From Lophium mytilinum (taxonomy: Eukaryota), in contig MU004191.1 in NCBI GenBank assembly GCA_010093605.1, forward strand, positions 1,224,816 through 1,288,815: a stretch of 64,000 nucleotides of DNA, read 5' to 3'. Below, piece after piece: positions 26,247 to 30,543 of this stretch (the first letter of the stretch is position 1; every line of letters begins with the position of its first letter). A model generated the notes under the pieces. The model ran no database searches. It was not told the origin of the DNA and saw only the letters and a program-made list of their open reading frames with translations. The position numbers were made by a program, and so were the translations under genes.

Positions 26247-27183
26247 GCCGGCTGGGACTTCGAATACTTCGGAGAGGTCGAGTATGTAAGGAAGTACTGA
26301 GGCGTCTAGGGACTGCCGGGGCCGAAGAGGTAGGGGAATGAGCGCAGAGATGCGCAAGGTATAGCGGGCTTGCGTTTGCGATGCGGCAGATCGTAGCTCA
26401 TGGTTGCAGCATTGCCGGTTCTATGTTGAGGTCGATGAAGAAGGGCGAGTGATTCGTTTCGTGACAAAGGTACGTCGACGATGTGGCTAGAGCAACAGCT
26501 CCCATGCGATGCGACTACTGCAGGAAAGTCGGATCAAGCCAAGAGGGGCTCGTTGTAGGCTGGACAACTATCAGGTAGAAACAAGCCATGTTGGGGCTCA
26601 GAAAAGATGATGTTGGACTAATAATTCCAGGTACCGCAGTGGGTCAAGCCAGGTTCGGCAGTCGGGACGTGCGGTATTCTGCATGGTGTCACTGATATTC
26701 AAATGAACCTTACCCCTACGGATGTACGTTCGCGATATTACAAGAGCAATACCTATTCACGTCGGTCACTTCTCAAATAACAGTCTTTCATGAAGGCACG
26801 GGACATCGAGTGAGTTTGAAGCAGTGGTAGAATAGCCTCGCCACATAGAATCAATAAAGCCCCATCTTTTCCCCCAGGAAGCTCAGTGCACGCTGTGTTT
26901 CGACCTCTAATCCTGCTCCTCGTCCCAAAATACTGGCTGAAGTCATTAGCTGTTTGCTTTGATACGGCATGATCACACTATGTAAGTGTAGTATATGCGG
27001 GGGGGTGTCGATGAATACTGATCTAGAGGAATATGTCGTATTCATGACGCACACTAGGCTAGTTGTGTAGTTATGGTCATACAAAAGGTTTCCTGTCAAA
27101 GGGCTCTTCAGAATTTTGCTCTGTACCAAACCCTTCTGCCAGAACTCTCGAAATTATCATCACCAAACATCAATCAAAACACA

Positions 27184-27585
27184 ATGGCCCCGACAGACCC
27201 ACATCAGGGTGGCTCGTTGAGCGATATGGCTGTGGATGGCACCAAGATTCCTAACGACGCCGGAGTTCAACGCCTCATTCCTTCAGTCCCTCGGCCAGAC
27301 CAGCAAGATCCAGGCAACGAGTTCAGCCACACAAATCCTGCCTCTGCTGTCGACAATGCTACAGATATTCCCCGTGGGCCACGAGACCAAGGGGAGACGG
27401 CAGAGGTGATCACCGGAACTGGCGATCAGCTTCCTTCATCGGTAGAGAAAAAGAACCTAGATGATGCGGGAATGGACCCAAGAGCCAAGGGGCATGATCG
27501 ATATGCCAAGCATGCAAAACAAAGGAATACGTTCGATTTGGCCGATGATGGCATAGAGGATGTGCCTGGCCTAGATAGGCGTTGA
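27184..27585 (+). CDS. Small hydrophilic hypothetical protein
   Basis: ACAATGG start, 133-aa hydrophilic ORF, TATA-like element and CA-rich leader upstream. Confidence 0.65.
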   Translation: MAPTDPHQGGSLSDMAVDGTKIPNDAGVQRLIPSVPRPDQQDPGNEFSHTNPASAVDNATDIPRGPRDQGETAEVITGTGDQLPSSVEKKNLDDAGMDPRAKGHDRYAKHAKQRNTFDLADDGIEDVPGLDRR

Positions 27586-27694
27586 ACCTAGTCTGCTAGG
27601 TCTCACATCGCTTTATGTATCTTAGCACATACAATCCAGTCTCTCTCGAAATTGACATGAGTTTTCGTTGAGGTAAAATGTTTAGCCTTCGTAT

Positions 27695-29251
27695 TCAATC
27701 GAGGAACATTGCTGTGTCGAATTGTTTGAAGTCACCGTGGCTCATAGCCTCTTCGTAGTCGTAATCGGGCTGAAAATTTGCGTAAAGTCTCTCCTATTGC
27801 ACTGAATGTGAGTCCTCGCAGTTAACAAATAACAGGGATCCTTACCGGGTCACTGGTCAACTTGAAATTGTGTGCAGCCTCGTGTTCGCCAATGAGATTC
27901 TTAGGTTTCCCAGCAGCAGTGGCAGCGTCAGCTAAAAGCTGCACTTGACAACATCGCTCCATGAGCCCGAGAAGGTACGCTGCCTCGTCCACAGTCCCGC
28001 CAGTAGTGAGCAGTCCATGATTCATGAGAAGACAAGCTTTGTTTCGTCCAAGAGCTGATGTGATGTTACGGCTTTCTTCTTCACCTAGCACGACGCCTCC
28101 GTAATTTGTATATACGCTGTGGGCTTTGTAGAAGTTGCATGCGTCTTCCGTAATCATCTCCAGTGGCTTCCCTAACGCGGAGTATGCGCCCCCGTGAATG
28201 GTGTGAGCGAGACATACAGCGTTGACATCTCCCCTAGCAAGATGGATGAACTTGTGTATCTGGAATCCTGCGGCGTTTGCAGGGCGCGACTGGACATTAA
28301 CAGGTCAGATATGGAGCTTGAAAGCTGTGTTGACTGTAGTCGAGACTCACTCTATTACCGCCCAGTACCATACCAGTATCCATGTCGAGAAGTATCATAT
28401 CACCTGCTTTCAAAAGGCCAAAATGAATCCCTAGGGGATTGATCCAAAAAGCATTTGTGTACTCTGGATCACGAACACTGATATGCCCCGATATGCCTTC
28501 GATGTAGCCACGACGATTGAAATATCGGAAAGCTGCCGCCATATGATTGAGCTGCCAATTCCGTTTCTCCGCGAACGACGGGAATTCAGGTATTCCTATA
28601 AGCTCCTGAGCATTCAACCGGCCGAAGAGTAGGAGGATAAGAATTACCTTTGAGGGGCATAGTACCATGGGATATCTGTTGCAAGGAAGTAGACAGTCCA
28701 GGTATAAACATAGGCAAATCAGGCACTGTTTCTTGCCCCTTTCCGCACGTTTGACATTGCTTGAGTAGAGCAAGAGTTTCTTGGCGCGTAGGCCCATAGT
28801 ATCGTTCCATAAGAGCAGTAGCAGTGTTCTGGTGCCCCCTCGGCCCATGTATATCGTGTTCATAGACAATCGTCTTGAATAAGTCTTCCTCTACAATGAC
28901 TCTGCGTTCGCGTGTGTGTTTTCGGGTTGGCAATGCAAAGAGACATTTCTCGATTGGGCAAAATCGGAAAGTATGCTTCCACCAATGGCGATCACTCTGG
29001 TCTTTCGCAGTCGGACATGCTCGGGACGGGTTCGTAAACCAGAGAATCCCCCTTTTCACTTCTTCGGCAGAGCGCCGCCGGCGACCTGGTTTGGAGGTCA
29101 CCGTGATTAGCTTGTAGAATGTAGCTTGCGCGTCCGCCGGAAACGCAGCTATCGCGCGTTGATGATCGTACGCGCGAGTTCCAGGACGTGGACCTGGTGG
29201 TTCTGTTATGGGTGCCACTTGAAATGGTGATGGATATATTGGCATGGCCAT
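27695..29251 (-). CDS. Class II aldolase/adducin-domain protein with in-frame N-terminal integrase-like H2C2 region; shorter alternative start at 28711
   Basis: Spliced ...ISHGTMPLK/GIPEFPSFAEKRNWQLNHMAAAFR..EGISGHISVRDPE..WINPLG..NHGLLTTG..DP/ERLYANFQPDYDYEE. Introns 28596-28647, about 28290-28350 and about 27794-27845. Confidence 0.8.
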
Positions 29252-29585
29252 GATGAAACACGCAATGATTTGGTGAAGTGAATAATGGTATGGAATGGCT
29301 GATAGTCTCGGAGATCCTGTCTTTCCTACGTCAGACGGTCACAAGATGGTGCGTGAATGCCCGGCGAATATCAAGATGTAATACCTCTCTTCTTGGTAGG
29401 AGAGTATCCGGCTTCCTGGCGTTGACAGAAGAGGATGCAGATTTGGACGTCGTGGTTTGGCAGAAAACCGTGGCCATTTGAGCGACCGCACCCCGCCACA
29501 AATTCGCCCGTGCTGAACTCGAGCTTCACAACCTCGCCCACCACATCGTCTCGAAACTGCTGCCATATCAAGGGCTAACGCAGAC

Positions 29586-30543
29586 ATGGTTTACTACTTC
29601 ACGAGCAACACGGTATCCCCGGCTGCCTTCATTTACGTTGGCAAGGACAAGGTTGAAAGTGAGATACTTAGCCGTCAGACCGTGTGAACGATCTACTCAC
29701 TCAATTTAGACGAAGAATTGATCAAATATGGACTAGATGAGGACGTCTGGTAAGTGTCTAAAAAAATTAAGCCGCTTCTGATCTGTTATCTAATCGTCCT
29801 ATTAAGGGTACTGATTTGTTGAAGGACTGCTCCGAGCTCTAAATAACACCTTCCAGTTCCATGTCGACAACCTTTCCAGCGCTCACGTATACCTTCGAAT
29901 GAACGAGGGAGACTCATGGGACTCGATACCGTCAGATCTTCTCACAGACTGCGCACAGCTGACGAAGGCCAATTCGATTGAGGGTCTAACTATCTGAGCC
30001 CTTCCTTAGCTAAATGCACTGACACTCGGCAAGGCAACAAGAAGGATAACATCACTGTCATCTACACGCCATGGTCCAACCTCAAAAAGGATGGCAGTAT
30101 GGCAGTTGGCCAAGTGAGCTTCAAAGATCAGCGCAAGGTATGCTAGCTAGATCTTGAAGCCCAACGTACAATAGTCTAAACCCGAGGCAGGTCAAGAAAA
30201 TCCATGTTGCTCAACGAGAAAATGTCATCGTGAATCGTCTTAATAAGACAAAAATCGAGAAGTTTCCCGACCTTCGACAAGAGAAGGAAACGCGACAGAA
30301 GGAGCTGAGGCATCGCGACAAAGCTACCCAACTTGCCCGGGTAAGCAGCTCTGATCATCAGCCATTTGGCTCAACGCTAATCTCTGTTCTGCACAGCAAA
30401 AGGAAGAGGCTAGAGTAGCTAAAGAGCGCAAGGAGAAGGCTTGGCAGAGGGATCATGCCTACGACGATCTGCTCTCTGAAGACGCAGTCGCATCTTCGAG
30501 CAACCAAGACCGGGATCCAGACTTCGAAGACGACTTCATGTGA
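29586..30543 (+). CDS. CCDC25/Jlp2-like protein (NFACT-R/DUF814 domain)
   Basis: [23 protein letters not shown]../[46 protein letters not shown]. Five introns. Confidence 0.93.

Follow-up and report, generated by a model that had tools for sequence, protein, structure and literature searches.

In a 64,000-nucleotide stretch of the Lophium mytilinum genome (the window; assembly GCA_010093605.1, contig MU004191.1, positions 1,224,816 to 1,288,815 of the forward strand), we characterized a gene in which the pre-catalytic part of a transposase is joined in frame to a class II aldolase fold. The gene lies on the minus strand at window positions 29251-27695 and consists of four exons, with a spliced coding sequence of 1392 nt, 463 residues and zero internal stops. 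The fusion is transcribed and spliced and is common to other fungi, and we consider it highly probable that a fusion protein maintained by selection exists. The gene is probably a domesticated, single-copy host gene that makes one protein. A first-pass annotation made from the sequence alone had proposed that a transposon-derived domain was recruited onto a metabolic fold, and this proposal finds support in RNA data, in purifying selection and in three more fusions that are likewise in frame.

The frame from ATG 29251 remains open for 201 codons up to a GT donor at 28647. It carries EHDIHGPRGHQNT...YYG...CQTC and continues into SLQQISHGTMPLK (H132 at 28858, C169 at 28745). Exon 1 (28648..29251, residues 1-201) contains the transposase-derived domain, a linker and the start of the aldolase fold; exon 2 (28351..28595) contains the N-terminal part of that fold, exon 3 (27846..28289) its core, and exon 4 (27695..27793) its end with the stop codon. 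The linker is variable (residues 173-186, 28694..28735) and includes M181 (ATG 28711). Intron 1 (28596..28647, GTAATT...TAG, 52 nt), intron 2 (28290..28350, 61 nt) and intron 3 (27794..27845, 52 nt) have GT-AG borders, and all three are removed in an RNA contig of 2557 nt from run X1, which spans 26692-29413 with zero differing letters. X1 is the single sequencing run with this stretch and is taken as RNA since its contigs skip 9 intron-like gaps. The contig starts 162 nt above ATG 29251, covering a 5' untranslated stretch with zero ATG (29252..29413), and its first ATG is 29251, in the context ATCATGG (A at -3, G at +4). The spliced fusion is the only RNA form assembled for the gene. The long frame running from an H2C2-type motif into the aldolase and the intron at 28596-28647 had been described in the first-pass annotation and are borne out by this contig, whose start above 29251 speaks against the refuting case named there, transcripts that begin near 28711.

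The same fusion occurs in other fungi. A phmmer scan with residues 1-180 returned 47 matches at E<=0.001, the best of which, P0004 (60% identical), runs in one frame into Aldolase_II (E 8e-10) and lacks intron 1. Scanning of metagenomes confirmed 3 loci (L037, L038 and L039) of 70 pattern matches, after a first scan with 0 confirmed among 110 pattern matches. L037 and L038 contain the identical in-frame fusion, with intron 1 at the same site, and L039 breaks off inside the N-terminal domain. The fusion is visible in 4 of 7 distinct lineages (window, P0004, L037 and L038), and the other three (P0005/P0051, P0053 and L039/P0054) are cut at an apparent intron or a contig end. The 8 rows of this clade form one group (SH-aLRT 98) in a quick-search tree of 55 rows, from which P0040 and P0050 were omitted as unrelated repeat matches and rows of <70 residues were filtered. 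None of the clade records has an informative name. Word-seeded protein searches for long relatives gave 0 among 710 candidates (388-2000 aa) and 0 among 7999 (376-2000 aa), which is weak evidence, and annotated full-length fusions may exist; an atlas search with the whole of P0004 gave no usable match. An additional phase-2 intron lies in the zinc finger (Gly153 codon) of L037 (1116-1169) and L038 (498-544) and is missing from the window copy and P0004. The protein records P0005/P0051, P0053 and P0054 all end straight after RYYG because this is the site of the additional intron.

Comparison of L037 and L038 by the Nei-Gojobori method with Jukes-Cantor distances gave a ratio of nonsynonymous to synonymous change (dN/dS) of 0.025 for the N-terminal domain (151 codons, dS 0.94; pN/pS 0.04, bootstrap 0.01-0.09), 0.022 for the aldolase part (128 codons) and 0.18 for the linker (23 codons). 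Both halves are under equally strong purifying selection. Between the window copy and L037/L038, synonymous sites are saturated (pS 0.84-0.91), yet 57-62% of the N-domain residues are identical. The low N-terminal dN/dS and the presence of the fusion in L037, L038 and P0004 agree with what the first-pass annotation expected of a genuine fusion, and a chance open frame upstream of an ordinary aldolase is ruled out by the dN/dS values and the relatives.

Analysis of the N-terminal domain (residues 19-172, 28736..29197) revealed an integrase-type arrangement of helices, an N-terminal extension domain and an HHCC finger, so that the recruited piece, which the first-pass annotation had rightly taken as H2C2-type, comprises about 150 residues and not the H2C2 motif alone. 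Its isoelectric point (pI) is 9.8; across four fused sequences the values are 8.7-9.8, vs 6.0 for the aldolase part. A basic patch, G56-R57-R58-R59-R60 (29072..29086), may be a DNA contact or a nuclear localization signal; GRRR is found in 8/8 clade rows and R59 in 27/27 family rows. It is well supported that this part is the pre-catalytic region of a DDE transposase of the integrase type and that it ends just short of the catalytic core. No DDE core (rve) follows the finger, in line with the first-pass annotation; a linker and then the aldolase fold stand there instead. Integrase_H2C2 (PF17921) is detected at E<=0.1 in 41 of the 47 phmmer matches and at or above the cut-off in 17 of them, and atlas features gave, as a lead only, clusters in which 11% and 33% of the members carry PF17921 (score 0.94). 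Five of the 47 (P0009, P0032, P0039, P0043 and P0045) run on with a GPL/APL stretch leading into a DDE core. P0071, a cluster-mate of P0032, is a protein of 470 residues with H2C2 and rve from the first Met and without reverse transcriptase (RT) or RNase H. When P0071 is used as the query, the fusion locus is the best match in the genome (E 8.9e-9). The alignment covers residues 57-182 (about 125 residues, 24% identity, pairwise E 1e-12) and stops where the DDE core of P0071 itself starts.

The nearest transposon relatives, as judged from sequence, are probably integrase-only DDE transposases that are Ginger2/Tdd-like by layout; Ginger2 transposases are described as carrying H2C2 and DDE without RT or RNase H (PMC2836005). 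The family profile scores 158 bits on P0071 vs <=31 on three Gypsy copies, although the profile includes P0032, a near twin of P0071. It also matches the decayed Gypsy integrases of the genome (E 5e-8), more weakly than the fusion locus. The first-pass annotation had compared the motif with that of Ty3/Gypsy-type integrases; Ty3/Gypsy copies score far lower than the integrase-only transposases, but a Gypsy origin of the N-domain is still conceivable. In the quick tree, the fusion clade shares an unresolved node with P0009 and P0043 (SH-aLRT 89). P0009 is a fragment whose EHDINGHA comes closest to the EHDINGP motif of the clade (46% across residues 104-172), and a DDE core begins behind it. Among living sequences, P0009 may be the one most closely related to the donor transposon. 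No intact integrase-only transposase was detected in the genome with P0071, whose 2 matches among 4 candidates are the fusion locus and a broken Gypsy copy. A dense decayed Gypsy region lies on contig C21 of the same assembly (G000), with 18 of the 36 Integrase_H2C2 matches of the genome, most of them with internal stops. Ginger2/Tdd-like transposases such as P0071, together with their domesticated relatives SCAND3, KRBA2 and Fob1, are among the known systems closest to the fusion, the homologous pre-catalytic region extending over about 125 residues in the comparison with P0071. Unlike these transposases, the fusion gene has no DDE core or terminal repeats, contains introns and is single-copy; SCAND3 and KRBA2 are reported to have kept the DDE core (PMC3575427), whereas the fusion gene retains only the part before it.

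The AlphaFold model of the N-domain built from a 30-row alignment has a pLDDT of 88. All top 11 Foldseek rows are foamy virus or Ty3 integrases (E 0.08-0.35), and VIA-align superposes the model on residues 8-99 of the prototype foamy virus (PFV) integrase (Z 7.1, rmsd 3.2, 89 aligned) and on Ty3 integrase (Z 5.6). PFV integrase (4bac, 8-99) and Ty3 integrase (7q5b, 24-134) are the best fold matches in both structure searches and the only PDB matches of the family profile (E 0.1). They differ from the fusion in sequence (13-16% identity) and in lacking two additional front helices (residues 30-52), and the His spacing of the fusion finger is x7 vs x3 in the aligned PFV sequence. The fold support for the N-domain is modest and partly circular.

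The variant zinc finger, H132-x7-H140-x25-C166-x2-C169 (28745..28858), fits the published integrase-like finger motif HX3-7H X23-32 CX2C (PMC5384227). H132, C166 and C169 agree with the family in 27, 27 and 26 of 27 rows, and the same four finger residues are found in L037, L038 and P0004. His140 is invariant in the clade, and a His occurs there in 1 of the 27 other family rows. The simplest reading of these alignments is that one zinc ligand has shifted to H140.

The C-terminal half contains the class II aldolase/adducin domain (PF00596), with 57.8 and 85 bits on exons 2 and 3 and a gathering score of 22.2. Its best PDB matches in these exons are TqaM (9m09), 9n43, NovR (9ryg) and 4xxf (E 1e-26 and 3e-42 to 8e-38), and L-fuculose-phosphate aldolase is far behind them. 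The class II aldolase of the first-pass annotation is thus right as to fold, but the closest proteins are TqaM/NovR-type oxidative decarboxylases and one of the three metal-binding His residues is lost. TqaM is described as an oxidative decarboxylase that forms homotetramers and binds non-haem iron through three His residues, and a review lists its substrate contacts as S72, G73, H74, N123, Q166, D167, W271 and E275 (PMC13351049); we mapped this numbering by hand from alignments. In the window copy, the metal triad reads L310, H312 and H374, the first position being Leu (codon CTC, 28209..28211; the RNA contig has no other letter) and His in relatives. L037 and L038 keep the triad (H327, H329 and H391 in L038). 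Five of the eight TqaM contacts are kept in the window copy, including S237-G238-H239 of exon 2 (equivalent to S72-G73-H74) and the equivalents of N123 and D167; Glu331 replaces Q166 (Gln in L038), Arg433 replaces W271, and Asn437 in exon 4 replaces E275 (Glu in L038). L038 keeps 7/8, and P0004, which has MAN for SGH, keeps 0 of the 3 covered by its fragment. The lost His of the window copy may be replaced by the nearby new Glu331, which would give a 2-His-1-carboxylate site.

A stand-alone paralogue in the same genome, L025, is 57% identical, with the His pair intact and a short N-terminus. Because L025 is about as TqaM-like as the fused copy (E 3e-85), the fused copy is not a TqaM orthologue; the presence of L025 also implies that the fused copy is a duplicate free to change. 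In a tree of the aldolase domain (7 rows), the fused copies stand apart from three paralogues, with support of only 71/70, so that the aldolase half of the fused copies probably arose once. None of the flanking frames scanned (TrkH, NFACT-R/CCDC25, LYR and DUF2293) is TqaL- or TqaF-like, and a TqaM-type biosynthetic cluster was rejected on these neighbours. In Neurospora, phosphate starvation induces a tqaM-like gene, NCU01072.

The neighbours of the fusion gene are housekeeping genes, the genome has a single strong match for the N-terminal domain, and no inverted repeat of >=14 nt was found within 26500-30000. TpA/ApT is 0.64 in the N-domain and 0.65 in the aldolase part vs 1.04 in a Gypsy copy, and the third-position GC content (GC3) of the N-domain is 0.47 vs 0.50, with no signature of repeat-induced point mutation (RIP). 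A recent transposon insertion or a RIP relic was rejected on base composition and lack of repeats.

It is also well supported that the pre-catalytic transposase region became attached to a duplicated gene of the TqaM-like class II aldolase fold, L025 being the stand-alone paralogue that remains. As to mechanism, we tentatively propose that the aldolase fold forms its usual homotetramer, with a metal and a small alpha-hydroxy acid bound where the subunits meet, and that each tetramer exposes four basic zinc-finger heads for binding to DNA or chromatin, like the homologous domain of Spt10. Such a protein could serve as a one-component regulator or as an enzyme tethered to chromatin, coupling a metabolite to a genomic site. 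The L037/L038 lineage has an intact metal site and may have kept the ability to turn over substrate. In the window copy (His to Leu, Gln to Glu, Glu to Asn) and in P0004 (SGH to MAN) the altered site would fit a shift from catalysis to binding or scaffolding. Such a tetramer with DNA-binding heads on a ligand-binding core, drawn by analogy with Spt10, is plausible at a little under even chance. A more ambitious version is doubtful: a eukaryotic one-component sensor with a transposase DNA-binding head, a re-wired zinc site and a tetrameric non-haem-iron core, which would read an alpha-hydroxy acid or the metal/oxygen state and regulate genes directly. The lineages would then represent stages between an active enzyme (L037, L038) and a pseudo-enzyme (window copy, P0004).

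In the yeast protein Spt10, the His2-Cys2 integrase-like domain is reported to bind histone promoters sequence-specifically, with cooperative binding through dimer formation (PMC1807970). Spt10 of Saccharomyces cerevisiae and its fungal orthologues resemble the fusion in that they are fungal host proteins in which an enzyme fold (GNAT) is combined with an HHCC domain of the integrase type. They differ in the enzyme fold, in the reverse order of the domains (the finger of the fusion is N-terminal), in the His pattern and in an identity of about 19% over the finger. The genome contains an Spt10-like gene, L011 (G000:C3:1418259-1421408), with a weak GNAT match and zf-H2C2 at E 3e-16, and the family profile matches L011 over the finger (E 5e-7; hhalign probability 62.6%). 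Neither GNAT nor zf-H2C2 (PF09337) matches the fusion protein, and Spt10 orthology was rejected, L011 being a separate gene. Host proteins with domesticated HHCC fingers also include ZBTB11, GIN1 and NYNRIN, which are vertebrate, have other partner domains and arose in independent events; the integrase-like HHCC finger of ZBTB11 is reported to be required for repression (PMC5384227). In the phmmer set, P0044 joins the N-domain to a C-terminal C2H2 zinc finger, a second recruitment that hints at DNA binding.

Several observations weigh against the reading of the gene as a fusion with a transposase-derived, DNA-binding, zinc-containing head. A Pfam scan of the whole first frame yielded no family, Integrase_H2C2 not matching the 221 aa at E<=1, and the isolated 73-aa finger piece reaches only 15.9 bits (E 0.014) against a gathering score of 25.5; the fusion locus is not among the 36 Integrase_H2C2 matches of the genome. 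Of the two profiles named in the first-pass annotation, Aldolase_II therefore scores over its cut-off and Integrase_H2C2 below. This weak score is offset by the transitive and structural homology. The fold match needs the 30-row alignment, since the pLDDT falls to 49.6 with just 5 close rows, the Foldseek E values are 0.08-0.35, and Z 7.1 is in a range that the tool calls common. In the finger, the second zinc His of the GHxG position (His in 25/27 family rows) is Pro137 in 8/8 clade rows, so that putative zinc binding depends on H140 substituting, and the PxKRPK that follows the finger in most stand-alone members is not kept in the fusion. On the RNA side there is a single contig, assembled from a single run, and this contig also covers the convergent neighbour and is not proof of one molecule. 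Finally, the N-terminal extension domains of integrases are also protein-binding platforms, so that DNA is not the sole possible partner.

This last point leads to the alternative that survives best, though we consider it rather unlikely: the N-domain would bind a protein partner or itself and not DNA, placing a TqaM-like enzyme at a complex or compartment, with the enzyme as the working end. The N-terminal extension domains of the Ty3 and DGLT-A integrases are reported to bind TFIIIC subunits (PMC6101501), and adducin is presented as a case of aldolase-fold tetramers serving as protein-binding platforms (10.1101/2024.12.18.629236). The intact metal triads of L037/L038, the substrate residues of L038 and the rearranged zinc motif point in the same direction, but the N-domain is basic, and catalytic residues are altered in the window copy and P0004 while their N-domains are still 60% identical. 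Because the active site has changed in these two sequences and the N-domain has been kept, the alignments suggest that catalysis is the more dispensable part, as the proposed tetramer with binding heads would have it.

Less likely still, the two halves may have independent functions, a stand-alone integrase-zinc gene having landed beside a duplicated aldolase gene at the promoter of CCDC25 and become fused to it, with each half selected for its own task and the join tolerated. Most of the 47 matches are indeed stand-alone fungal proteins of 140-300 residues; among 20 looked up, the named ones come from Lineolata, Annulohypoxylon, Ophiocordyceps, Diplogelasinospora, Sphaerulina and Macrophomina. 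A 27-row clade (P0007-P0048, SH-aLRT 98) is a widespread stand-alone Pezizomycotina family with a GHAGWDATW motif and no DDE core, which looks like a separate domestication. These "integrase zinc-binding domain-containing proteins" (UniRef names in Lineolata, Ophiocordyceps, Diplogelasinospora, Sphaerulina and Macrophomina) share the domain of about 140 residues at 24-33% identity, without a DDE core; unlike the fusion, they have a low-complexity tail instead of an enzyme fold and retain GHAG. By description, PSR3 of Coprinopsis cinerea can be likened to them: it has a predicted integrase zinc-binding domain and a nuclear signal and is reported to be needed for spore maturation (10.64898/2026.06.13.732014). 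The L. mytilinum genome seems to have no member of this family, a P0011 query matching only the fusion locus among 3 candidates, and this, together with the faster evolution of the linker, would suit independent functions. However, the fusion clade is not nested within the stand-alone clade, and the join has outlived synonymous saturation, one gain or loss of the finger intron and the loss of intron 1 in 4/4 observable sequences.

We give still less weight to transposon restriction, in which the truncated transposase domain, multimerized by the aldolase tetramer, would block Ginger2-like ends or the transposase. The break just before the DDE core is a dominant-negative layout, and tetramerization would add avidity; against this, the genome search found no intact integrase-only transposase, and the very low dN/dS fits housekeeping better than an arms race. 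Finally, it is very improbable that no fusion protein is made, with ATG 28711 producing the aldolase and retention of intron 1 (stop at 28586-28588) a separate 221-residue zinc-domain protein: M181 does lie just ahead of the aldolase's own N-terminal motif, and contigs cannot reveal starts and lose rare forms, but M181 has a weak context (C at -3) behind ten ATGs (7 out-of-frame, 3 in-frame), P0004 has no intron 1 to retain, the sole assembled RNA form is the spliced fusion, and in L037, L038 and P0004 no Met separates the finger from the aldolase fold, which leaves these three without a separate aldolase start.

On its 5' side, the fusion gene faces a divergent CCDC25-like gene (NFACT-R_1 matches), whose ATG 29586 is 334 nt from the fusion ATG, the distance given in the first-pass annotation. 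The gap between the two divergent RNA contigs (29414..29545; the CCDC25-like contig starts at 29546) is likely a common promoter, as that annotation had suggested. L037 and L039 retain the head-to-head CCDC25-like gene, at distances of 220 and 175 nt. Both of these loci have GTCACGTGAT in the short common promoter (L037 529-534, L039 1293-1298). CACGTG is a bHLH site, and the 334-nt gap of the window contains none. An out-of-frame ATG lies 5 nt before the fusion start codon in L037 (620) and L039 (1391); L038 has GTG there, and the window has none. On the 3' side, a convergent neighbour (27187-27585, plus strand) is a 132-residue frame with no Pfam family matched. It is included in the RNA contig, in which overlapping RNAs are merged at the 3' side; the reach of the contig to 26692 indicates either overlapping 3' ends with this frame or a 1-kb 3' untranslated region on the fusion gene.

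Fusions of host and transposon domains are an already known kind, and the combination of an integrase-type domain with a class II aldolase fold is probably an undescribed architecture. Our literature search, which left most subscription journals outside, found no class II aldolase-integrase fusion in fungi, and the one paper that mentions both an integrase zinc-binding domain and an aldolase treats the two separately. Three supplement files of a 1237-genome screen of fungal host-transposon fusions contain no PF00596 entry (PMC10799480); profile screens would miss the domain because its score is below the Pfam cut-off. Host-recruited transposase domains are mostly joined to chromatin or nucleic-acid domains, whereas here the partner is a small-molecule enzyme fold, and the join has persisted over a time in which synonymous sites became saturated. 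The intact and altered active sites, the putatively shifted zinc ligand and the stand-alone paralogue as a control form a natural series for the question of how an enzyme becomes a regulator. The set of fusions also offers a way into the large and so far unstudied family of stand-alone fungal proteins with an integrase zinc domain, and the fusion protein itself possibly links a metabolite to DNA.

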